Source: an uncultured Candidatus Saccharibacteria bacterium
Lineage (GTDB): Bacteria; Patescibacteriota; Minisyncoccia; Minisyncoccales; GWA2-38-27
NCBI GenBank assembly: GCA_964447515.1
Contig: CAYUSS010000004.1
Location: forward strand, 532-64,531
Direction of reading: 5' to 3'
Length of the DNA stretch: 64,000 nt
Shown: positions 1,707-64,000 of the stretch, piece by piece
How the letters are laid out: each line of letters opens with the position of its first letter
Numbering within the stretch: the stretch's first letter is position 1
Program-made: the position numbers and the translations under genes
Notes under the pieces: generated by a model
The model's input: only the letters and a program-made list of their open reading frames with translations
The model's database searches: none
What the model was told of the DNA's origin: nothing

Positions 1707-2330
1707 ATGAAATTTTATTTATCTTCTTATAAATTAGGTGATGAAATTGCCAAATTAAAGGAATTAATACCTGCAGAAAATAAAAAGACTGCATATATTT
1801 CTAATGCGCTTGATTTTTCAGATGACCTAGAAAGAAGAAAGAAAAGCGAACAAGATGATATAGAACAACTTAAAGAATTGGGTGTAGAAATTGAATTGGT
1901 GGATTTACGCAACTATTTCAACAAACAAAGTGAGCTAGAAAAAAAGATTGCTGAATTTGGTGTAATTTGGGTAAGAGGAGGCAACATTTTTGTGCTTAGA
2001 CAAGCAATGAAAACAAGCGGTTTTGATACTATTTTGAAAAACCTTGTTAAAAAAGATGATGTTTTGTACGGAGGATATAGTGCAGGAATTTGTGTATTGG
2101 GGCCAACCTTGAAAGGTATGGATTTAATAGATAATGCGAGTATAAAACCCTATGGAGATCAATCCGAAATTATTTGGGATGGTCTCGGTATTATTAACTA
2201 TTCTATAATCCCTCACTATAAATCAGATCATCTCGAAACAGAAAAGGCAAAAGAGGCCGTTGAATACATGGTAGAAAATAAAATACTGTTTAAAGCGCTC
2301 AAAGATGGAGAAGTTATTATTATTGAATGA
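1707..2330 (+). CDS. peptidase S51 (dipeptidase E-like) family protein, second divergent paralog
   Basis: Start taken at ATG 1707 (MKFYLSS...), because the track extension back to 1473 only translates the repeat. VIWVRGGNIFVL and GGYSAGICVLGP are S51-like. Confidence 0.7.
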   Translation: MKFYLSSYKLGDEIAKLKELIPAENKKTAYISNALDFSDDLERRKKSEQDDIEQLKELGVEIELVDLRNYFNKQSELEKKIAEFGVIWVRGGNIFVLRQAMKTSGFDTILKNLVKKDDVLYGGYSAGICVLGPTLKGMDLIDNASIKPYGDQSEIIWDGLGIINYSIIPHYKSDHLETEKAKEAVEYMVENKILFKALKDGEVIIIE

Positions 2331-2392
2331 ATTAAAACTTTTTATAGAATTTGGGTTAGATAAGAATGAGATATTTAAAATACCATTAAGTA

Positions 2393-2528
2393 GTGTCTCA
2401 TTTGTCTTATTTTAGCTTAAAAACCAGAAAAAATGAGACACGGGTCTTATCCTCAAAGCGACCTATTCCCGTCAGGAAAGGTCTTCGGTTTCCCTCTCAA
2501 AAGATGGTTCTGAACCCGACCGGGGAGC
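2393..2528 (+). repeat. intergenic repeat family 'GTGTCTCATTT hairpin ... GGTTCTGAACCCG..GGGGAGC', copy 1
   Basis: 11-bp stem GTGTCTCATTT/AAATGAGACAC, then CAAAGCGACC..CCCGTCAG..TTTCCCTCTCAAAAGATGGTTCTGAACCCGACCGGGGAGC. Matches 3778-3961 except for an indel of about 45 nt. Confidence 0.75.
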
Positions 2529-2583
2529 TCACTTTGGCCGCTTTCTCAAGAATGCGGTTTTCTGGTAGAATTAAGAATATATA

Positions 2584-2865
2584 ATGCAAATCTCTCAAAT
2601 TTTATTTTATATTTTAATAGCTTTTATTGGATACGCTATTGGAAGAATAGGTCATATTTATGGTGGATATTTAAAAGCGCCTCATCATTGGATTTACGGG
2701 TTAATTTTAATAATTTTAGGCCTAATCTTTTATAAAAACCTCTTAGGATTATTGGTTTTCTTTTTTGGGATAGGCCATTTTATAAGCGACTTTAAGGATT
2801 TCTTACACTTAAAATTTTACGGAGTAGACGAAGAAGGAGAAAAGAAATTCTGGGGGATTGACTAA
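2584..2865 (+). CDS. small integral membrane protein (about 3 TM), function unknown
   Basis: 93-aa ORF with hydrophobic segments ILFYILIAFIGYAIG, WIYGLILIILGLIF and LLGLLVFFFGIGHF. Confidence 0.5.
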   Translation: MQISQILFYILIAFIGYAIGRIGHIYGGYLKAPHHWIYGLILIILGLIFYKNLLGLLVFFFGIGHFISDFKDFLHLKFYGVDEEGEKKFWGID

Positions 2866-2906
2866 AAACAGGTTCTAACATCGTCCAGGCGGGAGCCACG
2901 ATTTTT

Positions 2907-2932
2907 CAAGCCATCAAGGCTTGTTTTTTTTT
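2907..2932 (+). terminator. intrinsic terminator-like hairpin
   Basis: CAAGCC-ATCA-AGGCTTG followed by an 11-nt T-run. Confidence 0.5.
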
Positions 2933-3144
2933 CGGTGGATTGAACAAATTACTGCTATGGCGCAACAGGAATGCACATCACCCATTTATGGGGGCTAATT
3001 CAAGACTTCTATGAACTCTCTTAATCTCTGCTACTTTCTCTTTCATCATCGCCATATACTCCCTATTCTCCAGAACTAAGATGAGTTTTTTAAAAATTGT
3101 TGAACGGGGGAGCCAATTTCATAATGTCATTAGAGAATTCAGGT

Positions 3145-3175
3145 AATCGCCTTTTGGGCGGTTTTTTGGTAGAAT
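3145..3175 (+). promoter_or_regulatory. terminator hairpin fused to extended -10 (TGGTAGAAT)
   Basis: AATCGCC-TTTT-GGGCGG hairpin and T-run, then TGGTAGAAT ending at 3175. Same module as 658-693, 50167-50198 and 62231-62261. Confidence 0.45.
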
Positions 3176-3224
3176 AAATTAGGAATTAAAGGTCGAAGAA
3201 CTAAAAATTAAATAATGTAAATTT

Positions 3225-3506
3225 ATGTTGTCACAAATACCTATTAATCTTGAGAAAGTAAAAAAAGAGGATATTGATAAAGAAATTTTAAGAGTGGGAA
3301 TAATAGCCGAATTAGATGCTATAAATCTTTATGAACAAATGGCAGCTGTCACCGAAACCGAAAATATCAAGAAAACTCTTTTGGATATAGCCAAAGAAGA
3401 AAAAACCCATATGGGAGAATTTCAGGCACTACTGTTGAAGGAAGATTCAGAACAGAGGGAAGAATTAGAAGAGGGTAAAAAAGAAATAGAAGAATTAACT
3501 GAATAA
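3225..3506 (+). CDS. small ferritin-like (EncFtn / rubrerythrin-like) protein
   Basis: 93 aa. AELDAINLYEQ ... AKEEKTHMGEF follows the E-x-x-(D/E)A(V/I)xxY(D/E)Q ... EEKxH di-iron pattern of encapsulated-ferritin-like proteins. No encapsulin shell gene is present in the window. Confidence 0.55.
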   Translation: MLSQIPINLEKVKKEDIDKEILRVGIIAELDAINLYEQMAAVTETENIKKTLLDIAKEEKTHMGEFQALLLKEDSEQREELEEGKKEIEELTE

Positions 3507-3569
3507 TATTATTTTAATTCAGCAGAAATCACTTTCCTGCCGAGGCGGTTTTTTTGGTAGAATAAATTA

Positions 3570-3753
3570 ATGAAAAAGGTTTCCCCTGTATCTGTATGTA
3601 ATTGGCGTTATTATCGTCCTCGTGCTTATAAACTACATTGCGTGGTCCGTGGGAGGAGAGGCGAAGTTAAAAAGTTTTGAGCTACTCTCCAGCGGCTTTT
3701 TGTTAGGGATGCTGACAATGTATATAGCGGTGCATATCTATCGCTGGAAATGA
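3570..3753 (+). pseudogene. small 2-TM membrane protein interrupted by a 1-nt frameshift in an A5 run right after the ATG
   Basis: ATG 3570 sits 6 nt after TGGTAGAAT. The 2-TM ORF (..LYLYVIGVIIVLVLINYIAW...GFLLGMLTMYIAVHIYRWK, stop 3751-3753) is in the +1 frame and has no start of its own. Removing one A of ATGAAAAAGG joins the two. Confidence 0.4.
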
Positions 3754-4029: not shown

Positions 4030-5319
4030 TTATTTCCGTTTTAGTCTTTTGATTTTCAGTTTTTTTAATGAGAATTTTGCCGTTAAAACCCTGTCTGTAT
4101 TAAACAGCCATATTGCTACATACATTGTAACTGCAGCAAAAATAATCATATATGCTATTCCGCCAAGAACAATCGGATAGTTTTGAAATATGAGGGCTTT
4201 TGAAGCAATAATCGGATGAGCAAAAGGTATAGCATATAAAAATATTTTCATTGGCAGAGAAAGCATTTCTACATCTTGAAACATTAGTAAAACATAAGGA
4301 ATCATTGCTAATAAAACAATAGGCATATTCATAATGTGGGCATTTTTTGTGCTTTGGGCAAACATTCCCAATATCATAGATATTGATAGAGCAATAAGAA
4401 TTGCCAGGAATAAAGAGATTCCCAAGAGGGTATAAGACAAAGGAGTCATTGTTAATCCTAAATCCTCAAGAATCGCTTTGCCGCTAGGAATAGCTGGCGT
4501 TATAGATGACATATAATATCTAAAACCTCCTAAAAAAACACCCGCCATTAAAAGAGCAACTACTGTCGCCCCAGTCATTTTTCCAATAACAATTGATGTT
4601 CTCTTTACCGGTAAAGTTAACAAAGTTTCTAAAGTTTTATTTTCTTTCTCTGAAACCATTGAAGTTACTATTGTTCCCCCCGCATAAATTATTAACATCA
4701 TCAAAATAACCGGTATCATCACTGATTGAGACACAACCAAACCTTCAATTATTACTGGATTCCCAGAAACCATTTTATCTTTTACTACCACAAACTCTTT
4801 TATATTTAGAGGACTTATTATATCTCCTGGATTTTTATCAGGAAAAGCTTCTTGAATAAAATTTATTGATATTTCTCTGTTAATAGAACCTATTATTGCA
4901 TTAATTGTTGCATCCGAAATCATTCCTTTCATGCTTAGTCTCTTTATTATAGAGTAAAGTTCTAAATCTACCCTTTTCTTTATTTTGATATCTTCTCCAA
5001 AATTTTCCGGGACTACCAAAAGAACTTTTGCCTCTTTTTCTTTTGCTTGCTCAATTGCTTTTTCAATATCAATTTCTGTAATTTCTGCTATTTCTATAGT
5101 TTTTTGTTGCGATAATTTATCTAAAATGCCTTTTGAGTATTGGGATTTATCTAAATCTAAAACCGCTAAATTTATTAGTTCATTGTCTTTTTCCCTAATG
5201 CCTTTCATAAAATTAGCCATTATACCAAACATAGCTATCATAAAAACCAAACCAAATATCATTTGTTTAGTCATCAATTCCTTTATTTCTTTTTTGAGAA
5301 TATTGTAAAAGTTTTTCAT
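4030..5319 (-). CDS. ABC-2 type transporter permease
   Basis: 429 aa with an N-terminal TM, a large extracytoplasmic loop and a C-terminal cluster of about 5 TMs. Shares a 4-nt overlap with the upstream ATPase gene. Confidence 0.75.
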   Translation of the reverse strand: MKNFYNILKKEIKELMTKQMIFGLVFMIAMFGIMANFMKGIREKDNELINLAVLDLDKSQYSKGILDKLSQQKTIEIAEITEIDIEKAIEQAKEKEAKVLLVVPENFGEDIKIKKRVDLELYSIIKRLSMKGMISDATINAIIGSINREISINFIQEAFPDKNPGDIISPLNIKEFVVVKDKMVSGNPVIIEGLVVSQSVMIPVILMMLIIYAGGTIVTSMVSEKENKTLETLLTLPVKRTSIVIGKMTGATVVALLMAGVFLGGFRYYMSSITPAIPSGKAILEDLGLTMTPLSYTLLGISLFLAILIALSISMILGMFAQSTKNAHIMNMPIVLLAMIPYVLLMFQDVEMLSLPMKIFLYAIPFAHPIIASKALIFQNYPIVLGGIAYMIIFAAVTMYVAIWLFNTDRVLTAKFSLKKLKIKRLKRK

Positions 5320-6038
5320 CTTATTGCGTTGATAAACACTTCTTCGATATTTTTAGCATTATATTTGTCTTTTAATCCTTGAGGGGTGCCGGTTTCTAAT
5401 ATTAGCCCTTTATCTATCAAAGTAATTCTGTCGCATAAGAATTCCACTTCCAGCATATTATGAGAGGACAACAAAACCGTTGTTCCTTTTTTAACAAAGT
5501 CCTTTATTATTCCTCTTATTTCCTGGGAAATTATCACATCCAACCCCGATGTTGGTTCATCTAAAATAGCCAACTTAGGATTTATCATCAATGCCCTGGC
5601 GAGCAACAACCTTCTGCTCATTCCTTTGCTATAAGTACTTACTTTACCTTTTAGGCGTTTTCCAAGTTTAGCCAATTCTATTCCTCTCTCCATTATCTCT
5701 CTTTTTTCTTCATTGTCCTTTGAATAAAAACTAGCCATAAATTCCAAATAAGCTTTCCCTGACAGATTTTTATAAGCACCAGCTTCTTCCGGCAAATAAC
5801 TAATTCTCTCTCTAACTTTGTCTGCTTTTTTAATTACATCATAGCCGAAGACCTTCACTTCTCCAGAAGTAATTTGCAGCAGTGTTGAAATAATTCGTAA
5901 AGCAGTAGTTTTTCCGGCAGCATTCGGGCCAATCAAACCAAAAATCTCTCCCTGATTTACTTCAAAAGAAATACCTTTCAGAGCCCTAAAATTCCCATAG
6001 TCTTTTATTAAATCTTTAACTTCTGTTGCTTTATTCAT
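5316..6038 (-). CDS. ABC transporter ATP-binding protein
   Basis: Walker A GPNAAGKTT, signature YSKGMSRRL, Walker B LAILDEP. Start chosen at MNKATEVKDL (6038); the track start at 6080 is an alternative. Confidence 0.85.
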   Translation of the reverse strand: MNKATEVKDLIKDYGNFRALKGISFEVNQGEIFGLIGPNAAGKTTALRIISTLLQITSGEVKVFGYDVIKKADKVRERISYLPEEAGAYKNLSGKAYLEFMASFYSKDNEEKREIMERGIELAKLGKRLKGKVSTYSKGMSRRLLLARALMINPKLAILDEPTSGLDVIISQEIRGIIKDFVKKGTTVLLSSHNMLEVEFLCDRITLIDKGLILETGTPQGLKDKYNAKNIEEVFINAIR

Positions 6039-7001: not shown

Positions 7002-7055
7002 TTAGCTTCAGAAAATCGCTAAGAAGTCGGTTTTTTGATAGAATTAAATAGAATT

Positions 7056-7694: not shown

Positions 7695-7819
7695 AATACG
7701 TTCGGATTTTATCCAGGGTGCGGAGCAAATTTTTTGTTTAAAAAGCTAAGGTGTTATTGCTTTTTATTTGTTATAAGTATATACTCTAATTAGCTAAAAC
7801 TATAATTAAAATTAGAAAT

Positions 7820-8398
7820 ATGGAAAATTTTAAACGAAACAATAGATCCGGCGGGAGAGGAAATAGCGGAAGATTTGCCGGCCGGAATTCAGGAAGACCA
7901 GCAATGCATAGGGCTATTTGCAGCGAATGTGGAAAAGACTGTGAAGTACCCTTTAAGCCAACTGGGGATAAACCCGTTTTCTGTAGTGACTGTTTCAGGA
8001 GCAAGAGAAATGCGGAACCGAGAAGATTCAGCGGAAAAGATTCCGGAAGATTTAATTCCGGCAATAAAAGAATGTACAAAGTGGTTTGCGACAAGTGCGG
8101 AAAGGAATGCGAAGTCCCTTTCAGGCCCACGAGTGACAAACCGATTTATTGCAGCCAATGTTTTAGCAGGGGAGGCAAAGATAAAAGTTCCGACCAAGTA
8201 AGCAAGCAATTTGAGATAATAAACGCCAAACTTGATAAAATCTTAAAAGCGTTAAGTCCCTGTATCTCTGCGGAAGCGGATGAAAAGAAAAAAACAATCA
8301 AAAAAACGGAAATTTCTAAACCCAAAAAAATAAGCAAGAGCAAAGACAAGAAGGTCATTTCTCCTAAAAAAGCAAAAGAAAAAAAGAAAAGGTTATAA
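7820..8398 (+). CDS. tandem zinc-ribbon protein (2x CxxCG...VPF.P....KP(V/I)(F/Y)CxxCF) with RG-rich N-terminus and Lys-rich tail
   Basis: Two internal repeats: CSECGKDCEVPFKPTGDKPVFCSDCF and CDKCGKECEVPFRPTSDKPIYCSQCF. The basic flanks suggest nucleic-acid binding. Confidence 0.5.
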   Translation: MENFKRNNRSGGRGNSGRFAGRNSGRPAMHRAICSECGKDCEVPFKPTGDKPVFCSDCFRSKRNAEPRRFSGKDSGRFNSGNKRMYKVVCDKCGKECEVPFRPTSDKPIYCSQCFSRGGKDKSSDQVSKQFEIINAKLDKILKALSPCISAEADEKKKTIKKTEISKPKKISKSKDKKVISPKKAKEKKKRL

Positions 8399-8620
8399 TA
8401 TAACTAATAAAAAATAAAAGGTAAAAAAAATGGGCATAGGATGGCATAACAGAAAAAGGCTTAATAAAAAGTTAAAAAAAAGAAGAATAAAAAGAAACCA
8501 ATCAAAGAAAAAGTGAAAGATAAGAGAAAATTAAGAAAATTCTACTAAATAGACTTAACATTATTTATACAAAATAGATCCTAAATTTGCTAACCTTTCT
8601 TTGATTTTATTCCAATCTAT

Positions 8621-8826: not shown

Positions 8827-9032
8827 AGTAAGGTAAGTTTCTGTTAATTTTCCTTTCCTTGCATATTTATTAATTATGTAAGCTCTGAAAGAAAATAAAA
8901 ACAGTGGTCGGCTTACTCATAAATAAATAGCGTAAGGAACAATTATACTTCTAGGGATATTTTTTACTACAAAATTATAATTGCAACGCAAGTTGCAATA
9001 ATTCTAGAGATAATTTTCACTTTGCTCGCATT

Positions 9033-13778: not shown

Positions 13779-14798
13779 TTATTTTAAGATTAAATTTAAA
13801 TCTTCGCCGCACTTTGCACATTTCCCATTTTTGTCATAACGGGAAATTTGATATCCAATTCTGTTAATCATTTTTGTTTTGCATTTGGGGCAAAAAGTGT
13901 CTTCTGATTCTATTCCAGGGACATTGCCAGTATAAACATATTTCAAGCCGGCTTTTTCCCCGATATTAAATGCTTTTTTTAAGGTCTCTATTGGAGTATC
14001 AGCTAAATCTTGGAGTTTCCAGGAAATTGCTCCGCAAAATTGGCTAACATGCCAGGGAGTTTCTGAGCCAAGTTCATTTTTTATAAAGTTAGCAATATTT
14101 TTAAAAATTTCTTCTGAATCATTTAGAGTTGGAATAACCAAAGTTGTCACCTCAACCCAGATTTTTTTATTTTTTAACCGTTTTAGAATATTTAAAACTG
14201 GCTCTAGTTTTCCTCCACAATATTTCCGGTAAAATTCATCAGAAAAACTTTTTAAATCAATATTAGCAGCGTCTAAATAAGGAGAGATTAAACCAAATAA
14301 TTCTTTTGACCAAAATCCATTACTAACCCAATTATTTTTTAACCCCTCTTTTCTGGCTAATTTCATTGTATCTAAAGCATATTCTGAGAAAATCGCAGCT
14401 TCGGTGTAGGTATAGGAAATGCTTGGTAGATTTCTTTCTTTGGCAATTTGAACAATTTTTTCTGGAGAGATTTCTTCTCCCACAATTTTCCCGGTCAGCT
14501 GGGGCATTTGAGAAATATCATAATTCTGGCAGCTCCCGCATTTGAAATTACAACCAACCGTTGCTATAGACAATGATTGTGTTCCAGGCAAAAAATGGAA
14601 AAAAGGTTTCTTTTCAATTGGGTCAACATTTAAAGCACAGGCCTTTCCATAAACCAAAGAATAAAGTTTACCATTCTGGTTCTCCTTTACGCCACAAATT
14701 CCTCTTTTTCCTTCCTCAATAGCACAATAATGAGCGCAGTTCTGACATTGAACTTTTCTATTGGGTAGTTTTTTATAGAGATAAGCTTCCTTCATCAC
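13779..14798 (-). CDS. AmmeMemoRadiSam-type radical SAM enzyme (PFL-activase-like)
   Basis: CxxxCxxC cluster GCNFKCGSCQN, plus an N-terminal Cys cluster CQNCAHYC and a C-terminal zinc-ribbon CPKC...CAKC. Confidence 0.8.
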   Translation of the reverse strand: MMKEAYLYKKLPNRKVQCQNCAHYCAIEEGKRGICGVKENQNGKLYSLVYGKACALNVDPIEKKPFFHFLPGTQSLSIATVGCNFKCGSCQNYDISQMPQLTGKIVGEEISPEKIVQIAKERNLPSISYTYTEAAIFSEYALDTMKLARKEGLKNNWVSNGFWSKELFGLISPYLDAANIDLKSFSDEFYRKYCGGKLEPVLNILKRLKNKKIWVEVTTLVIPTLNDSEEIFKNIANFIKNELGSETPWHVSQFCGAISWKLQDLADTPIETLKKAFNIGEKAGLKYVYTGNVPGIESEDTFCPKCKTKMINRIGYQISRYDKNGKCAKCGEDLNLILK

Positions 14799-14841
14799 GC
14801 TTTAATTTTAACTTTTTTTATGATAAAATTCAATTGATATT

Positions 14842-15414
14842 ATGAAACAAAGACGTCGAGTTTTCATTGCTATAAATTTACCAGAAAACATAAAAAAGAA
14901 ACTGGCAGAATATCAGAGGAAATGGCCAGAATTACCTATCAGGTGGACCAAACCAGATAATATTCATATTACTTTAGTCTTCTTGGGATATATCAGAGAT
15001 GAAGAGCTTTTAGAGATTTCCAAAATTATCAAAGAAGTGGCCTCCCAACGTTCTTCATTTTCAGTTAATTTAAATAATATTTGCTATGGTCCGCCTAAAA
15101 AAATGCCGCCCAGAATGATTTGGGGAGTAGGGGCAAAGTCCGCTGAATTCGCCTCCTTAAGAGATGATTTAGATAAATTATTATTAGATTCAGAAAATAC
15201 CAATTTTTCTTCAGAGAAGAGAGAATTTTTTCCTCATATTACCTTGGGGAGAATTAGAAAATGGGAATGGCAGCGAATTGAGCCCGAAGAAAGGCCAGAA
15301 GTTAATGAAGAGATAAATTTAATTTTTTCAGTGGATTCAATAGAAATGATGGAAAGTGTATTAAAAAAAACAGGACCAGAATACACCATACTTGAATCAG
15401 TTCCATTGGGCTGA
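14842..15414 (+). CDS. thpR: RNA 2',3'-cyclic phosphodiesterase (2H family, LigT/ThpR)
   Basis: Two HxT motifs: NIHITLVFLG and FPHITLGRI. Confidence 0.85.
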   Translation: MKQRRRVFIAINLPENIKKKLAEYQRKWPELPIRWTKPDNIHITLVFLGYIRDEELLEISKIIKEVASQRSSFSVNLNNICYGPPKKMPPRMIWGVGAKSAEFASLRDDLDKLLLDSENTNFSSEKREFFPHITLGRIRKWEWQRIEPEERPEVNEEINLIFSVDSIEMMESVLKKTGPEYTILESVPLG

Positions 15415-50166: not shown

Positions 50167-50198
50167 GAATCGCCAAAACGGCGATTTTTTGGTAGAAT
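50167..50198 (+). promoter_or_regulatory. terminator hairpin fused to extended -10 (TGGTAGAAT), 6 nt before the maf ATG
   Basis: GAATCGCC-AAAAC-GGCGATT plus a T-run, TGGTAGAAT at 50190-50198, ATG at 50205. Confidence 0.55.
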
Positions 50199-50204
50199 GA
50201 ATAT

Positions 50205-50786
50205 ATGGCAAAAATTATTTTAGCTACAACTTCTCCATACCGCAAGGAAACATTTGGTTATTTAGGTATTGATTTTGAAACAGAGGGAAGCAATGTAGAT
50301 GAAACCAAATTAGAAAGGAATAACCCAGAAGAATTAGTAAGAAACCTTTCAAAATTAAAAGCTGAAGCAGTAGCAAAAAATCATTCAGATGCTATTGTGA
50401 TTGGAATGGATTCGATTACTTATTTTAACGGACAGATTCTTGAAAAGCCCAAGTCAAGAGAAGAAGATTTTCAAAGGTTGAAAGCTCTTTCTGGTGGCAA
50501 CCATCAATTCTATACAGGAATCAATATGATTAACACTGGCTCTACTAAGATGCTATCAAGGATTGTTAAGACAAATGTCTTTATGAGAGAGCTTTCCGAG
50601 GAAGAGATCAACAAATACCTTGACGAAGACCCCAATTTTAATACTTATGCTTTAGGTTACGACCCCGTAAAACATTACAGTGCTTCATTTGTTAAAAGAA
50701 TAGAAGGGAGTTATTATAATCTTTTAGGAGGTATTCCTTTAGAAACAATAGTTGAAATGTTAAGAGAGATGGGTTATAAAGTATGA
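50205..50786 (+). CDS. maf: Maf-like nucleoside triphosphate pyrophosphatase
   Basis: ILATTSPYRKE N-terminus and the Maf family layout (..VIGMDS.., ..GGIPLE..). Confidence 0.8.
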   Translation: MAKIILATTSPYRKETFGYLGIDFETEGSNVDETKLERNNPEELVRNLSKLKAEAVAKNHSDAIVIGMDSITYFNGQILEKPKSREEDFQRLKALSGGNHQFYTGINMINTGSTKMLSRIVKTNVFMRELSEEEINKYLDEDPNFNTYALGYDPVKHYSASFVKRIEGSYYNLLGGIPLETIVEMLREMGYKV

Positions 50787-58395: not shown

Positions 58396-60045
58396 ATGGG
58401 ATTATTTAAGAAAATTAAACATTTCCTTAAAAAAAGAAGACGTTTGGTGATGGGTTTTTTTATAGCGGTATCTGTTGTTTGTTTATTCGTATATTTCGCA
58501 GCCACTCCTAACATTCAATTTGAAGTTTTAACTCCCAAACACCTAATAAGTTCTGTCTATAAGGTATACGGGAATCCCGATATTGGTTTTTGGTGCGGTA
58601 AAACCGTAATAACAAATACAGGGGATGGCCCGGCATATGATTTAAAAGTATCTTATAAAGTTGAAGGATATACCGACTGGAATGAATCTGTGACTTATCC
58701 AATATTATTGTCCGGCAGTACTGTTGTAGATTTATATTATCCAATATTGCCAAAAGAAATAACAGATTTAAAAACTCCTACTCCTTCCAATATTAAAATT
58801 AAAATTACTTATGCCGAATCGCCCGGGGGCTCGCAGAAAGAAATTACTCAAAATAAATCTATAATGATTCTTGGAAGCCGCGATTTTGTATTTAGCAGTA
58901 TCCTTCCGGAAGAGAGTACCGGAAGTTTTCTTGATAATTTCAGTAATTATCCTCTTTTAGCGGCTCGGGTTACTCCGGCCGATCCGGTTCTTATGAGTTT
59001 TGCCGATATGGGGAATAAACTTGCCGGCGGTCCGGGGGCAAGCCTTTCAGATGACGAAGCTATAAGATCCCTTTCGGGAATATGGCGGGTAGCGGTAAAT
59101 AACAGAATACAATACAAAACAGAACCTTTGGCGTTTTGGACTGGAGAATTTGCTCAATTTATAAAATATCCCAGAGACGTAATAAAAGACAAAGCAGGCA
59201 CTTGTATTGATACGGCGTTATTTTTTGCTTCCGCTGCCGCATCTCAGGGCTTAAAACCTTTTATAATTCTTATGCCGGGACACGCTTTTACTGTCATTCA
59301 ACTGCCCAGCGGAACAAACATAGCTGTAGAAACAACTGCTTTGAATGACAGGGCATCCTTTGGGCAAGCAGTAGATCTTGGAAGTAGAGTTTATAATGAC
59401 GCAATACAGGGACCTTATATTATTGTAGATGTTATAACCCTCCAATCATTAGGAATAACTCCTCCGGAGCTTGAAGAGTTGCCTTCTGACGCTCTTGAAA
59501 AATGGGGAATCAGTATGGCAGGAAGCGGATCTTCAGCGCAACCTCAACCCCAACCTCAACCTCAGCCCCAACCTCAACCCGAACCTCAACCTCAACCCGG
59601 ACCCCAGCCCCAACCCGGAGAAGAAGATTATGTTAACTATGCCAATCCTTATTATCCGGAATGGAATATTTCTTATCCAAATAGTTGGTCAATTCTCCAG
59701 TGGGTGAATGAGATTGATTTATATTCTCCTTCCAAGCAAGTGAGATTTGTTATAGCTTGGGGTTATGGAATGAGCGCCGACCAAGCCAGAAGCACTATGG
59801 AAAATTTTGTGCTGAAGCCGATGGGTGTCCAGACAACAAACGAAAACCCGGATAATGTTTGCGGCATTTCAGCTACTGAAGTGGAATATCAAGGCACGAC
59901 TAACGGTGTAACTTATCTTTTTTACGCTAGATATTTTCAGGCAAAAAATCACGGATTTGCTATTATATATAATTTTCCCAACGACGCGAACTCTAAAAGT
60001 AATTCAGAAACTTGTGAAACCGTTTTGAGAAATTTTGCTCTATAA
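58396..60045 (+). CDS. membrane-anchored transglutaminase-like protein with a (PQ)n linker
   Basis: TM anchor. Cys-His core GTCIDTALFFASAA...LMPGHAFTV. Low-complexity tract QPQPQPQPQPQPQPEPQPQPGPQPQPG encoded at 59536-59615. Confidence 0.55.
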   Translation: MGLFKKIKHFLKKRRRLVMGFFIAVSVVCLFVYFAATPNIQFEVLTPKHLISSVYKVYGNPDIGFWCGKTVITNTGDGPAYDLKVSYKVEGYTDWNESVTYPILLSGSTVVDLYYPILPKEITDLKTPTPSNIKIKITYAESPGGSQKEITQNKSIMILGSRDFVFSSILPEESTGSFLDNFSNYPLLAARVTPADPVLMSFADMGNKLAGGPGASLSDDEAIRSLSGIWRVAVNNRIQYKTEPLAFWTGEFAQFIKYPRDVIKDKAGTCIDTALFFASAAASQGLKPFIILMPGHAFTVIQLPSGTNIAVETTALNDRASFGQAVDLGSRVYNDAIQGPYIIVDVITLQSLGITPPELEELPSDALEKWGISMAGSGSSAQPQPQPQPQPQPQPEPQPQPGPQPQPGEEDYVNYANPYYPEWNISYPNSWSILQWVNEIDLYSPSKQVRFVIAWGYGMSADQARSTMENFVLKPMGVQTTNENPDNVCGISATEVEYQGTTNGVTYLFYARYFQAKNHGFAIIYNFPNDANSKSNSETCETVLRNFAL

Positions 60046-60951: not shown

Positions 60952-61015
60952 ATAATTGCGGCACTCGGTCGAAAAAGAAAAATGAATTTTTCTTTTCCTC
61001 CCTCACTTGCAATTA
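60952..61015 (+). promoter_or_regulatory. second copy of the 64-nt leader motif; its 3' stem abuts the nuclease start codon
   Basis: ATAATTGCGGCACTCGGTCGAAAAAGAAAAATGAATTTTTCTTTTCCTCCCTCACTTGCAATTA, with ATG at 61015-61017. Confidence 0.6.
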
Positions 61016-61899
61016 TGAAAAAGTTTTTTGAAAAAAATAAAATATTTATTGCCGTAATAATAGCCGGTTTGATAGTTGGAGGAGCTGTTTATTTTAGTTT
61101 AACTGAATTTGGGAAAGAAAGCCGAGATAGTGGGGGAGAGAATACTGAATGTTTAGCCCCATCTGAAGCAATGGTCACTAAAATTATTGATGGAGATACA
61201 GTAATAGTTGAAGGCGGCGAGCATATCCGGCTTTTAGGCATTGATGCTGATGAATCGGGCTATCCTTGCTATGGACCCGCTAAAACTCGTTTAGAAGAAT
61301 TAGTTTTAAGCAAAAAAGTAAGATTGGAGAAAGATAAAACTGATGTTGACCAATATGGAAGATGTTTAAGATATATTTTTTTAGACGACCAAAATATTGG
61401 CCTTCAATTAGTAAAAGAAGGATTAGCAGTAGCCCGATTTTATGAGCCGGATGTGAAATACAGAGATGAAATTGTTGAAGCGGAAAAACAAGCAATTGAG
61501 AATGAAATCGGCTGTAAATGGAGCAGTACTCCAAAAACACCTTTATTGCCAGCATCTTCAAAAGAATTTGAAGAACTTACTGCTGAAAAAACCAGCTTGG
61601 AAGTAGTTTTCGCCTGCAATGCCGGAAACTATATTGGTCAAGAAATAATAGTTGAAGGCAAGGTTGTTGATACTTATTATGATTCAAAAAGCAACACCGT
61701 ATTCTTAAATTTTGAAAAGCCATATCCCAATCATTGTTTTGTGGGTGTGCTTTTCAGTTCCGACCAATACAAATTCGTCCAAAGCCCGGAAGATTATTAT
61801 TCAAACAAAACCGTGAGAATCAAAGGCGAAATCAAAGAATATGAAGGCAAACCCGAAATTATTTTAGAAACACCAAACCAAATTGAGATAGGGAAGTAA
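61015..61899 (+). CDS. membrane-anchored thermonuclease (SNase-like) with a C-terminal OB-fold-like domain
   Basis: Anchor MKKFFEKNKIFIAVIIAGLIVGG. SNase motifs DGDTV...IRLLGIDA.E and GRCLRYIF..D...LVKEGLA. Start at ATG 61015, not the track start at 60982. Confidence 0.75.
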   Translation: MKKFFEKNKIFIAVIIAGLIVGGAVYFSLTEFGKESRDSGGENTECLAPSEAMVTKIIDGDTVIVEGGEHIRLLGIDADESGYPCYGPAKTRLEELVLSKKVRLEKDKTDVDQYGRCLRYIFLDDQNIGLQLVKEGLAVARFYEPDVKYRDEIVEAEKQAIENEIGCKWSSTPKTPLLPASSKEFEELTAEKTSLEVVFACNAGNYIGQEIIVEGKVVDTYYDSKSNTVFLNFEKPYPNHCFVGVLFSSDQYKFVQSPEDYYSNKTVRIKGEIKEYEGKPEIILETPNQIEIGK

Positions 61900-62230
61900 A
61901 ATCTGAGTCTTTTTTATATTGACAATATGTTTTAATTTGCTAAAATTAAACATAGAAGATAAATAATTATGCAAATATCTTTTAGTATTCAATCCGTTGT
62001 TTTAGTTCTCGTCAGCCTTCTTGAAAGGATTGGAAAAAGGTGTCAGGAACCTTTTTTAGTGGAAAAAATGGTGTCAGGTCTGGTTTTAAGAAAATAGTGA
62101 ATAGCAGGGTAGGGTGAATTTGATATAATGATTTTAAGCTTGTGGGACTTAAGTTTGGGATGTAAATATACTCATCTGATTACCGGATAATAGTTCTAAC
62201 GTTGTCCACGATGCGGAGCCGGGCTCAAAA

Positions 62231-62261
62231 AATCGCCAAGGGGGCGATTTTTTGGTAGAAT
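62231..62261 (+). promoter_or_regulatory. terminator hairpin fused to extended -10 (TGGTAGAAT)
   Basis: AATCGCC-AAGGG-GGCGATT and a T-run, then TGGTAGAAT, 7 nt before ATG 62269. Confidence 0.5.
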
Positions 62262-62268
62262 GGAATAT

Positions 62269-62355
62269 ATGAATATTGAAGTGGAGATAAAAGTTAAAAT
62301 AGATAGTCTTGGTCAGAAAAAGGGGTCAGGAACCTTTTTTGCAATAAGAAAATAG
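62269..62355 (+). pseudogene. truncated CYTH-domain gene start (28 codons)
   Basis: MNIEVEIKVKIDSL resembles the E.E.K beta-1 strand start of CYTH/CyaB-like proteins. The ORF runs into the hairpin AAAAAGGGGTCAGGAACCTTTTTT and stops. Confidence 0.35.
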
Positions 62356-62417
62356 TGTCAACTCTGAATTTTTAACAGGAAACAAAAAGTCGAAAAATTA
62401 ATTGAAAAATAAAATTT

Positions 62418-62783
62418 ATGGAAAAAAATTTAACTATAAAAGAAATTCAACATATTATTGATAAATGGATTAAAACATTTGGGGTTCGGTATTTTTCTGA
62501 ACTTACGATTTTAGCTCTATTAGTTGAAGAAGTAGGAGAGGTTGCTAGGGTTGTATCAAGAGTTTATGGTGACCAAAGCTTTAAAAAATCAGAAGAAGAT
62601 AAAAATTTAGCTGATGAATTGGCAGATGTACTTTTCGTATTAATTTGCCTTGCCAACAAAACAGGGATTGATTTAACAAAAGCACTTCAGAAAAATCTTG
62701 ATAAAAAAACAAGTAGAGATAAAGATAGACAAAGAAATAATTTGAAGTTAACGAAGAAGGGTAACTCGAAAAGGAAGGATTAG
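62418..62783 (+). CDS. MazG-like nucleotide pyrophosphohydrolase
   Basis: EEVGEVARVV ... LADELADVLFVLICLAN is the EExxE...D all-alpha NTP-PPase pattern. Confidence 0.75.
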   Translation: MEKNLTIKEIQHIIDKWIKTFGVRYFSELTILALLVEEVGEVARVVSRVYGDQSFKKSEEDKNLADELADVLFVLICLANKTGIDLTKALQKNLDKKTSRDKDRQRNNLKLTKKGNSKRKD

Positions 62784-62939
62784 TAAAATATGTTATTCTT
62801 ATGTTCTCAAGAACATAAGAATAAGGAATCCGAGCAAAAGCCTGTTGAAGTCAGACTTCAACAGACGACTTTGGTAAAAAAGTAAAAAAATTAAACCAAG
62901 TCAAACAAGGATTGAAGAATTAATTGAGAAATAAAATTT

Positions 62940-63200
62940 ATGGCAATAATCAAGAAGAAAATTTGGCCAAAATATTTTGAGTTGGTAAAATCTGGTAAAA
63001 AGAAATTTGAGTTGAGATTGGCTGATTTTAGAGTGAAAGAAGGAGATGTTTTAATTTTAGAGGAATGGAATCAGAAAACGAAAAAATACACCGGCAGGGA
63101 AATAAAAAAGAAAGTAAAATATATTGCAAAATTCAAACTTGATAAATTTGGGCAGAAGAAAGAAATTGAGAAAAAGGGATTATATGTAATTCAATTTTAA
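62940..63200 (+). CDS. ASCH/DUF3850-like small protein
   Basis: 86 aa. ..FELVKSGKKKFELRLADF.VKEGDVLILEEW matches the PUA-like ASCH beta-barrel start. Confidence 0.5.
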   Translation: MAIIKKKIWPKYFELVKSGKKKFELRLADFRVKEGDVLILEEWNQKTKKYTGREIKKKVKYIAKFKLDKFGQKKEIEKKGLYVIQF

Positions 63201-63213
63201 ATAGTTAAAATTT

Positions 63214-63657
63214 ATGAAAATAACAATTTGTGGGAGTATTGCATTTTTTGACGAAATGCTTGATATCAAAAAACAATTGGAGGAGTTGGGGCATGAAGTA
63301 AAAATGCCTCCTGTTAAAGTTGAAGACGGCAGCGGTAATTTAATATCAGCTGCGGATTATTATAAAATTAGAAAACAATCTACAGTTGATAAAGGTTGGA
63401 TTTGGGACAGGAAAGAATGGGCAATGAAAAAACATTTTAATAAAGTTGCTTGGTCAGACGCAATATTGGTTTTAAATTACGAAAAGAATGATATTAAGAA
63501 TTATGTCGGAGCAAATACTTTTTTAGAAATGGGATTGGCTTTTCATTTAAATAAGAAAATTTATTTAATGAATTCTATCCCGGAAGTATCGTATAAAGAA
63601 GAGCTGTTAGGGATGAAACCAATTATTATAGATAGAAATTTAAATAAAATTTTATAA
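63214..63657 (+). CDS. nucleoside 2-deoxyribosyltransferase-like protein
   Basis: MKITICGSIAFFDEM...LG.EV..P is a Rossmann-like start typical of NDT/DNPH1-like proteins. Assignment is tentative. Confidence 0.4.
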   Translation: MKITICGSIAFFDEMLDIKKQLEELGHEVKMPPVKVEDGSGNLISAADYYKIRKQSTVDKGWIWDRKEWAMKKHFNKVAWSDAILVLNYEKNDIKNYVGANTFLEMGLAFHLNKKIYLMNSIPEVSYKEELLGMKPIIIDRNLNKIL

Positions 63658-63748
63658 AAATAAAAACAGGGACGTTTCTATTTTTAGAAAATAAGCCAAT
63701 CAATTTTAGGCAAAGGATTTTAGAAATCAAAAAAACTAATTAAATTAT

Positions 63749-63913
63749 ATGAACATAGAATACGAAGCAACATTTTTGAAAATAGATAGAGATGAAATAA
63801 GGAAAAGATTAAGAAATGCAGGAGCGAAATTGATAAAACCCGAATTTTTACAAAAACGTGTTGTTTTTAATTTACCAAAAAGCTTTGATGGATATAGCTG
63901 GTTGAAGTTATAG
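63749..63913 (+). pseudogene. truncated CYTH-domain gene (54 codons)
   Basis: MNIEYEATFLKIDRDEIRKRLRNAGAKLIKPEFLQKRVVF is a CYTH N-terminus, with a premature TAG at 63911-63913. Full-length CYTH proteins are about 170 aa. Confidence 0.45.
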
Positions 63914-64000
63914 ATAATAAAATTTCAGAAATAACTTTTAATAGTGAAAATCCATTTCTGAAATTTAAAAATAGTAAATAATATGAAGGTTTATTTTGTA

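Follow-up and report, generated by a model that had tools for sequence, protein, structure and literature searches.

A probable nucleotide disposal or salvage gene cluster with a decayed CYTH gene in an uncultured Candidatus Saccharibacteria bacterium

Nucleotide sanitation in mammals involves DCTPP1, a MazG-like all-alpha nucleoside triphosphate (NTP) pyrophosphatase, and DNPH1, an N-glycosidase of deoxynucleoside monophosphates (dNMPs). MazG-type enzymes hydrolyze (d)NTPs, in many cases non-canonical ones, releasing pyrophosphate and leaving the monophosphate, whereas the NDT-superfamily hydrolases DNPH1, BcmB, and MilB break the glycosidic bond of (d)NMPs. Modified bases are bound or demodified by ASCH/PUA-like domains, and triphosphates are the substrates hydrolyzed by CYTH enzymes. 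Here we describe a locus of an uncultured Candidatus Saccharibacteria bacterium in which intact genes for a MazG-type enzyme, a DUF3850/ASCH protein, and an NDT-like protein are followed by the remains of a CYTH gene. It lies near the end of a 64,000-nucleotide (nt) stretch of DNA (hereafter, the window; contig CAYUSS010000004.1 of assembly GCA_964447515.1, positions 532 to 64,531 of the forward strand; G+C content, 34.5%). An earlier reading made from the sequence alone (hereafter, the sequence-only reading) had seen here a modular insertion or duplication of cassettes into a CYTH locus. We consider it probable that the locus is instead an ordinary gene cluster for the disposal or salvage of aberrant nucleotides, with a CYTH gene inactivated in place and a leader typical of the clade. 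All coordinates are those of the window unless a comparison locus (L-numbers) is named; P-numbers denote comparison proteins. Features for which a strand can be assigned lie on the plus strand.

Two short open reading frames (ORFs), at 62269 to 62355 and 63749 to 63913, had been taken for N termini of CYTH proteins. Both are present with the translations that had been quoted, and the assignment holds for the second only. Taken alone, the 54-codon ORF at 63749 has no match in Pfam or the PDB, and neither start scores by itself against CYTH models; the full-length homologues of the second, however, match PF01928. A scan of metagenomes with the conserved peptide PE[FY]LQKRV recovered 80 loci, in most of which the same N terminus opens a frame of 186 to 201 codons, and about 90 CYTH relatives were obtained in all, mostly full length (186 to 201 aa). 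The first 54 codons are 65 to 72% identical to the N termini of these homologues, and full-length homologues match PF01928 over residues 3 to 146 (3.5e-13, 3.4e-10, and 2.4e-07), so that by transitivity the fragment at 63749 is a CYTH N terminus. A separate family of mini-proteins, suggested by a word-indexed search that returned short proteins only, was overturned by the full-length metagenome relatives.

The sequence-only reading had this second gene stopping early, whereas its C-terminal codons in fact follow out of frame, as expected of an internal deletion. Searches with TBLASTN placed homologue residues 171 to 193 at 63901 to 63969, in a different frame, with 61 to 77% identity (E = 2e-5 to 2e-4). 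Together with the homologue alignment, this delimits a CYTH pseudogene at 63749 to 63981 that consists of two out-of-frame remnants, namely codons 1 to ~52 (63749 to ~63905) and the last ~26 codons (63901 to 63978), with the original stop codon at 63979 to 63981. The frame of the C-terminal remnant reads VEVIDNKISEITFNSENPFLKFKNSK up to that stop, and after only 3 nt more the next gene opens with its ATG. Over its first 157 nt, the pseudogene shares 85% nucleotide identity with the closest intact gene (in L050), of which about 358 nt are absent between the remnants; the deletion junction lies in GGTTGAAG, at a place where the homologue has GTT(A/G)A on both flanks. About 119 of about 194 codons are thus missing in addition to the frameshift, leaving residues 1 to ~52 and ~171 to 194, and no complete eight-stranded tunnel domain (about 150 to 200 residues in one frame) is encoded at 63749 to 63981. 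The ExExK motif of CYTH proteins reads EYEAT in the fragment, and throughout the subfamily the place of the Lys is taken by Thr, with Lys itself found only rarely.

Because the C-terminal end lies directly behind the N-terminal end, the arrangement points to decay in place rather than to a gene split by an insertion, and as judged from these alignments the CYTH gene is a pseudogene in its original location, with an internal deletion and a frameshift. The pseudogene is fixed in the population, being found whole in five JGI contigs, with its start in one Logan contig. Extension past position 64000, which the sequence-only reading had proposed as a check, uncovered no intact CYTH gene in same-strain contigs; the next gene, at 63985, encodes a histidine phosphatase. 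Decay of the same gene recurs in other genomes: the copy in L058/L059 has lost an internal segment in frame (117 aa), that in L084 is truncated (125 aa), and five further CYTH proteins (P0002, P0003, P0005, P0006, and P0007) are truncated at 45 to 77 aa. Since the gene was lost here and has repeatedly decayed elsewhere, we regard it as dispensable. Independently degraded copies in other metagenomes were located at 410 to 760 of L058/L059, 4411 to 4785 of L084, 608 to 841 of L009, and 4601 to 4777 of L008; the in-frame deletion begins just after the residues WLRV, near the breakpoint in the window.

Upstream of the pseudogene are three small genes for nucleotide handling, and here the sequence-only reading was right about all three, two by Pfam and the third by family matches and a structure model. 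The first (62418 to 62783; 121 aa, intact) encodes a MazG-type NTP pyrophosphohydrolase, which matches PF03819 with 61.6 bits against a cutoff of 22 (E = 8.6e-17; profile positions 2 to 73 of 74), as well as MazG-like families of PHROG. Its translation contains the acidic EExxE and ExxD motifs, in LLVEEVGEVARV (EEVGE) and LADELADVLF (DELAD), which from knowledge of the family we take to bind metal. The second (62940 to 63200; 86 aa, intact) encodes a PUA-like DUF3850/ASCH protein, with matches to PF12961 (68.5 bits, cutoff 22.9, 5.9e-19) and PF04266 (30.1 bits, cutoff 21.2, 8.1e-07) and orthologues of 86 to 88 aa in L016, L041, L061, and L072. In the literature searched, DUF3850 is described only as PUA-like and of unknown function. 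The spacer between the two genes (62783 to 62940) does hold the two perfect hairpins that had been reported. They were recovered as inverted repeats within 62793 to 62866, at 62793 to 62824 and 62840 to 62866, with stems of 15 bp and 11 to 12 bp; each is unique within the window, the folding of the spacer has z = -5.9, and only on the minus strand do the hairpins resemble terminators. No known RNA was matched between 61850 and 64000 in Rfam, either at the gathering threshold or at E <= 5. In L042, two near-identical MazG genes (8266 to 8577 and 14770 to 15081) stand 6.5 kb apart, on either side of a set of genes that includes those for the nuclease, an HD protein, and an NDT-like protein; TGTCAACTGTCGAAAAATTAATTGAC, which precedes the second copy, is similar to window positions 62352 to 62405.

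The third gene (63214 to 63657; 147 aa, intact) encodes a protein with the fold of NDT/DNPH1/BcmB-like N-glycosidases, as indicated by profile matches of its family and a predicted structure. The family comprises 1132 representatives at E <= 0.001, and PF05014 is matched at E <= 0.1, near or below its threshold, in 31 of 46 aligned members (best, 5.1e-07). A more distant neighbor of CYTH, an NDT gene in L063, scores 41 bits against the PF05014 cutoff of 28.8 (2.5e-10). The AlphaFold model of the window protein has a pLDDT of 96.3, and its best PDB matches are NDTs, BcmB, YtoQ, and DNPH1: all nine Foldseek matches at E <= 0.001 are NDTs, BcmB, or YtoQ with a probability of 1.00, DNPH1 comes next at E ~0.004, and the top structures are 6evs, 2a0k, 4jen, and 8pqt. 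A weak likeness to TIR-STING was also seen. In this superfamily, the catalytic Glu nucleophile is expected in a G-x-x-x-E-x-G-x-A segment. Glu105 (in NTFLEMGLA) is kept in at least 90% of the family; HHalign places it opposite the catalytic Glu of DNPH1 (in GVGYELGRA), in an alignment that is weak (E = 0.032). The model further predicts an insertion of 30 residues (about 30 to 60) that forms extra strands. From these matches and the model, the label "NDT-like" is right at the level of fold and superfamily.

Domain fusions and gene neighborhoods link these enzymes to one another. Of 20 multidomain relatives tested, 16 join the NDT-like domain to NTPase_I-T (8 proteins), NUDIX (6 proteins), or MazG (2 proteins), which are three unrelated pyrophosphatase folds; such fusions suggest coupled steps that would lead from the NTP to the nucleoside monophosphate (NMP) and on to base plus sugar phosphate. 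Tandem NDT-NDT proteins also occur among the NDT-like relatives (P0009 to P0147). In L061/L065, a tight array on one strand encodes HD, an unknown protein, NUDIX, NDT-like, CYTH (195 aa), DUF3850/ASCH, a further unknown protein, Ham1, and PolX, with NUDIX in the place of MazG. The adjacency of NDT-like and CYTH genes in these loci suggests that the NDT-to-CYTH order is probably ancestral. L063/L066 have a CYTH gene followed by an NDT gene, L072 has CYTH with ASCH and NUDIX nearby, and NUDIX or Maf directly follows CYTH in L050, L051, L054, L060, and L062. Overall, these gene families have 0.12 matches per kb within 2.5 kb of CYTH against 0.03 to 0.04 elsewhere in the DNA fetched (3- to 5-fold). 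Directly upstream, the cluster in the window adjoins a gene for a secreted nuclease with an SNase domain (60982 to 61899), and around the nuclease gene of its relatives we found NDT, ASCH, MazG, NUDIX, HD, and another type of CYTH in ever-changing order. The exact trio of the window, in its order, was not recovered outside the strain. NDT-like, CYTH, and ASCH genes do adjoin in L061/L065, an independent genome; by their neighborhoods, the genes appear to belong together, if loosely. The literature searched holds no published description of a neighborhood of CYTH, NDT-like, ASCH, and pyrophosphatase genes.

On these grounds, the following scheme can be proposed. MazG would cleave a (d)NTP to (d)NMP and pyrophosphate, and the NDT/DNPH1-like enzyme would cut the N-glycosidic bond of the monophosphate or nucleoside, freeing the base and leaving a sugar phosphate. 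With its PUA-like fold, the DUF3850/ASCH protein probably recognizes or demodifies a modified base. A CYTH triphosphatase would once have belonged to this set as well, encoded immediately behind the NDT-like gene, before its inactivation by the ~358-bp deletion and frameshift. The cluster could serve to clean and recycle the nucleotide pool of an organism living on scavenged nucleic acids, given the adjacent secreted nuclease.

The sequence-only reading had suggested that the enzymes act together on non-canonical or signaling nucleotides; joint action is favored by the neighbors in L061/L065 and by the pyrophosphatase fusions, whereas PADLOC gave no hint of signaling. A signaling or anti-phage system is in our view extremely improbable; in it, CYTH would be a cyclase or triphosphatase that produces or degrades a signal, with MazG, NDT, and ASCH serving as effectors or as enzymes that clear it. 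Folds of the NDT, TIR, and SLOG-like kinds, and MazG, are generally known to occur in conflict systems, the NDT-like model has its weak resemblance to TIR-STING, and downstream of the cluster are two genes for Cas4-like PD-(D/E)XK proteins together with a HATPase_c_2/DUF4325 gene. PADLOC, however, reported nothing for ASCH, the NDT-like protein, or an intact CYTH homologue, and for MazG only a marginal and irrelevant match to GajB (E = 0.00098, with no matched stretch); its Cas4-like matches belong to genes farther downstream. The genes here are, moreover, single-domain, with no sensor/effector architecture, CYTH is dead while its partners are intact, and the recurrent partners elsewhere (NUDIX, Maf, Ham1, and NTPase_I-T) are classic house-cleaning enzymes.

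Another claim that was borne out is the match between the sequences upstream of 62418 and 62940. A pairwise repeat search gave two copies of a leader motif, at 62392 to 62427 (GAAAAATTAATTGAAAAATAAAATTTATGG...) and 62914 to 62949 (GAAGAATTAATTGAGAAATAAAATTTATGG...), so that the MazG and ASCH start regions share a 36-nt repeat with 32 of 36 positions identical; a 26-mer from the sequence-only reading is exact at both sites (0 expected in shuffles). Among 1830 pairs of gene-start regions in the window, 32 of 36 is an outlier (mean, 13.9; standard deviation, 3.3; next best, 25). The general form of the leader is GAAnAATTAATTGA(G/A)nAATAAAATT(T)ATG. It is not specific to this locus: it stands directly before the start codons of an NTPase_I-T-like stub in L020, of one gene each in L042 and L078, and of the CYTH genes of L089 and L098; in L054, it lies at a distance of 30 nt from the start of a CYTH gene of another type. 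A 25-nt stretch of copy 2 is 96% identical to positions 7697 to 7721 of L020, and in L042 GTCGAAAAATTAATTGA lies upstream of a MazG gene, with the leader split by a GC-rich hairpin. Unrelated genes, including those for a glycosyltransferase-like protein and unknown proteins, are preceded by it as well. Copies in other genomes have GAGG 8 to 9 nt before the ATG, which argues for a ribosome-binding leader, and the window copies have decayed to GAGA or GAAA. From these comparisons, the shared 36-nt sequence is best regarded as a stereotyped leader typical of the clade and not as a recombination scar. A promoter reading of the shared junction was rejected, since the distance between its hexamers and the start codon is wrong for a promoter.

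The nuclease gene and MazG are 520 nt apart, and the DNA that separates them is a patchwork of dispersed repeats and remnants of genes. It begins with a promoter-like site of near-consensus sigma-70 type at 61919 to 61946 (TTGACA-16-TAAAAT, with TG before the second hexamer), a candidate defined by its 11 of 12 consensus matches only. A 42-codon ORF from the ORF list (61969 to 62097), possibly a gene stub, has no Pfam match, and its matches in other loci are confined to the hairpin repeat in which it ends. This repeat, found by a repeat search, has the form AAAGG(T/G)GTCAGGAACCTTT and when translated reads KRCQEPF or KKVPDTF. Its copy A (62033 to 62099) comprises two tandem GGTGTCAGG units and then TAAGAAAATAGTG; copy B (62316 to 62357; GAAAAAGGGGTCAGGAACCTTTTTT ... 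TAAGAAAATAGTG, 24 of 25 repeat positions matching) follows 283 nt downstream of copy A, where the stub at 62269 loses its CYTH-like sequence. Three exact copies of the 17-mer AAGGTGTCAGGAACCTT are present in L020, which is also a CPR (candidate phyla radiation) genome, with a shared identical stretch of 17 to 23 nt, and the variant GGGGTCAGGTACC occurs twice in L060; the nuclease proteins of the window and L020 are only 56% identical. The sites are 7838 to 7856, 8877 to 8897, and 14644 to 14666 (minus strand) in L020 and 4231 to 4243 and 4351 to 4363 in L060. A tandem duplication of ~120 nt in L060 (4180 to 4440), rich in GGGGTCAGAAG units and ending in GGGGTCAGGTACCTTTGAGGGG, lies ~600 nt upstream of the CYTH-Maf gene pair of that genome. 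In L020, positions 7697 to 7856 hold the leader motif and then a stub of ~40 codons, resembling NTPase_I-T (inosine/xanthosine triphosphatase) as judged by eye, that is cut off by the hairpin repeat. The hairpin repeat and its peptide reading are absent from the literature searched, and neither the repeat nor the leader motif was found in 2.9 million viral contigs.

Between the two hairpin repeat copies, a two-block dispersed element at 62153 to 62225 (GGGATGTAAATATAC ... GTTCTAACGTTGTCCACGATGCGGAGCC) is defined by its copies in other loci, three in L074 and one in L071, with 92 to 97% identity over 26 to 29 nt. The element (GGGATGTAAATATAC ... GGTTCTAACGTTGTCCACGATGCGGAGCC) recurs at 580 to 608, 130 to 202, and 5788 to 5813 of L074, another CPR contig (all on the minus strand), and at 1670 to 1695 of L071; in the window, it has an extended -10 element (TGATATAAT) on one side and a terminator on the other, and an ATG-TAA pair of start and stop codons lies in its first block. 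It shows no covariation and no Rfam match, and a small-RNA candidate at 62134 to 62262 was rejected because its folding is unremarkable (z = -1.4) and the conserved blocks lack covariation. Next comes a terminator-promoter module (62226 to 62261; repeat search), in which a perfect 12-bp stem with a T run overlaps the extended -10 element TGGTAGAAT. The window has 8 copies of GGCGATTTTTTGGTAGAAT, which combines the terminator hairpin and the extended -10 element, within 3 mismatches against 0.04 expected (670 to 688, 1648 to 1666, 2553 to 2571, 3157 to 3175, 3545 to 3563, 7026 to 7044, 50180 to 50198, and 62243 to 62261), and the same module stands immediately before a normal gene at 50205. Its frequent position right before an ATG suggests that transcript leaders may be very short or absent. 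Most genes of the window lack a Shine-Dalgarno sequence, and many have a TGnTAnAAT element immediately 5' of the ATG.

Directly behind this intact module is the 28-codon ORF at 62269 to 62355, whose first 14 to 15 codons (62269 to 62312) encode MNIEVEIKVKIDSL and whose remainder runs through repeat copy B; its position suggests the genuine start of a gene since lost, and it may be a remnant of a second gene. Its claimed CYTH origin is another matter. Residues 4 to 8 of MNIEVEIKVKIDSL form an ExExK-type EVEIK, with five alternating beta-strand residues that are not specific. The stub has no Pfam match at E <= 10, its only PDB match is a designed beta protein, no homologue of the ORF was found in 128 loci, and it ranks 16th among 1286 N termini against a CYTH N-terminal profile, a test of low power given 14 to 15 codons. 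The GGGGTCAGG hairpin into which it had been said to run is a weak AT-rich stem (-7.3 kcal/mol, z = -1.1) and a copy of the dispersed repeat. The promoter module would now drive this 15-codon stub, and MazG, ASCH, and NDT may now share that promoter.

A functional role for the short ORFs, with the 28-codon ORF and its hairpin acting as a leader peptide or attenuator that controls MazG-ASCH-NDT and the 54-codon ORF as a retained small protein, seems to us very unlikely. The intact promoter module before 62269 and the hairpin after the stub would fit, as would the 54-codon ORF being identical in six contigs with no internal stop. The C-terminal CYTH remnant has also acquired a stable and perfect 13-bp hairpin (63920 to 63966; AAATTTCAGAAAT/ATTTCTGAAATTT, z = -4.5) that is absent from the 14 intact homologues checked. 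Against this, the truncated relatives end variously (45 to 125 aa), as expected of independent decay; 54 residues of an eight-stranded barrel are, from general knowledge of the CYTH fold, no folding unit; and the first stub has the weak hairpin and the lack of homologues noted above.

The cassette model of the sequence-only reading, in which mobile nucleotide genes insert or recombine at a CYTH locus through a common 5' junction and leave truncated CYTH starts on each side, must be weighed against the same evidence. In its favor, two CYTH-like starts are present, the two copies of the 36-nt junction agree far better than other pairs of gene-start regions, the dispersed hairpin repeat lies exactly at the cutoff of the first stub, L020 shows the leader with an NTPase_I-T-like stub cut by the same repeat, the near-identical MazG pair flanks the nuclease region of L042, and each related genome has its own arrangement of genes around the nuclease. 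The downstream CYTH gene, however, keeps its C terminus right behind its N terminus with nothing inserted, the NDT-CYTH adjacency exists elsewhere with an intact CYTH, the two starts are not mutual copies and the first is not demonstrably CYTH, and the leader also precedes unrelated genes. The window is collinear, at 99.4 to 99.96% identity, with seven same-strain contigs that derive from five JGI samples and two sequencing runs, and none of these is a structural variant missing a "cassette." The genes past the cluster on its downstream side revealed no integrase, transposase, or recombinase (those farther upstream in the window are unannotated), and neither motif occurs in the viral contigs. 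We therefore consider the cassette model unlikely. A related proposal, quite unlikely in our estimation, is that house-cleaning genes (MazG, ASCH, NTPase_I-T, and CYTH) are swapped as modules in this branch of the CPR, each with its ~25-nt leader GAAnAATTAATTGAG-AATAAAATT-ATG and bounded or cut by the hairpin repeat AAAGGTGTCAGGAACCTTT; both motifs flank a truncated stub in two genomes, CYTH-like in the window and NTPase_I-T in L020. If true, such exchange would represent an undescribed recombinase-independent or host-mediated turnover of cassettes, with stubs left beside a secreted nuclease gene.

The preferred interpretation, an ordinary disposal or salvage cluster with a CYTH gene that decayed in place, has several points standing against it. 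The 54-codon CYTH stub is still an open frame with 85% nucleotide identity to an intact homologue, which could reflect a recent deletion or residual constraint. In two genomes, that of the window and L020, gene stubs break off at the hairpin repeat, and this hints at an active process where we have assumed passive decay. The exact MazG-ASCH-NDT order was found in same-strain contigs only and is shuffled elsewhere. The NDT-like protein has no direct sequence match in Pfam (PF05014 included), NCBIfam, or the PDB, and the TM-scores of its model against solved structures of the NDT family are only about 0.5 (0.45 to 0.55). Finally, we infer the substrates and the order of the steps from family knowledge and domain fusions.

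The surroundings of the cluster can be summarized briefly. The next gene, for a His_Phos_1 phosphatase of 208 aa, is represented in the window by its start only (63985 to 64000) and runs past the window end, as seen in the same-strain contigs L003 to L007. Past 64000, it is followed by PD-(D/E)XK, HATPase_c_2/DUF4325, DUF7768, a gene of the Cu-oxidase_4 family, and others. In L003, the two Cas4-like PD-(D/E)XK genes, HATPase_c_2/DUF4325, and a second NDT-like gene occupy 1198 to 2043, 2230 to 3258, 3429 to 3743, and 4615 to 5361; this second NDT-like gene is the DUF7768 gene and matches the (phage) PHROG family "nucleoside 2-deoxyribosyltransferase." The SNase protein upstream (60982 to 61899; loci L026 to L040) is membrane anchored, with a C-terminal OB-like region. 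Its relatives, with at most 69% identity, come from Patescibacteria/CPR genome bins and DPANN archaea, those in the archaea (Woesearchaeota, Pacearchaeota, and Aenigmatarchaeota) being 48 to 59% identical. This distribution suggests possible exchange between CPR and DPANN, two groups of small-celled episymbionts. The relatives of the nuclease place the bacterium itself, with its tiny, low-GC genome, among the CPR/Patescibacteria, and the genome collection searched has no representative of its species. Farther upstream, the ORF at 58396 to 60045 (549 aa) has a run of PQ/PE dipeptide repeats at 59560 to 59640 (PQPQPQPQPQPQPEPQPQPGPQPQPG).

These results replace the pair of "bracketing" CYTH starts with one proven pseudogene and one unverifiable stub, and they annotate an NDT-like family for which neither Pfam nor NCBIfam offers a dedicated model. 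The repeated fusions of NDT-like and pyrophosphatase domains, with the clustering of the NDT-like domain with CYTH and ASCH, predict a two-step route of disposal or salvage from NTP to base in bacteria unable to make nucleotides. CPR genomes are usually regarded as streamlined; the recurrent decay of one accessory gene and the short motifs common to several of these genomes could mark gene turnover. Three smaller leads, all still tentative, come from the fusions of the NDT-like domain, the cross-genome leader, and the REP-like (repetitive extragenic palindromic) hairpin at the points of stub truncation.

The repeats of this locus can be compared with two known systems. Like REP elements, the hairpin repeat is short (about 25 nt), an imperfect palindrome, multicopy, intergenic or at gene ends, and sometimes in tandem; unlike them, it shares an identical 17- to 23-mer across genomes as far apart as their nuclease proteins indicate, and no RAYT-type transposase was seen. 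Unlike integron-like cassette arrays, the locus has repeats without resemblance to attC, and no recombinase was seen downstream, in a comparison that covers few genomes. As for the genes, the house-cleaning groups MazG, NUDIX, Maf, Ham1/RdgB, and NTPase_I-T/YjjX all recur beside CYTH or NDT-like genes or fused to the latter. Intact CYTH homologues match PF01928 as do the CYTH/triphosphate tunnel metalloenzymes (CyaB-type class IV adenylate cyclase, thiamine triphosphatase, and inorganic triphosphatases), and JGI names one relative "adenylate cyclase class 2"; they depart from canonical CYTH in the EYEAT of the subfamily, and the window copy departs further in its deletion and frameshift. NDTs (PF05014) and the CMP/hmCMP N-glycosidases BcmB and MilB provide the best structural matches of the NDT-like protein, which differs from them in falling below every Pfam and NCBIfam threshold and in its 30-residue insertion. 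A functional parallel is with mammalian DCTPP1 and DNPH1, where two steps lead from triphosphate to monophosphate and then to base plus deoxyribose 5-phosphate, as is proposed here. MazG lies 431 bp upstream of the NDT-fold gene with one gene between them, and the two folds are fused in relatives. The NDT-like protein differs from DNPH1 in sequence and structure (10 to 14% identity; TM-score, about 0.5), and the bacterial genes, unlike those of the mammalian route, are clustered or fused and have ASCH and CYTH partners.

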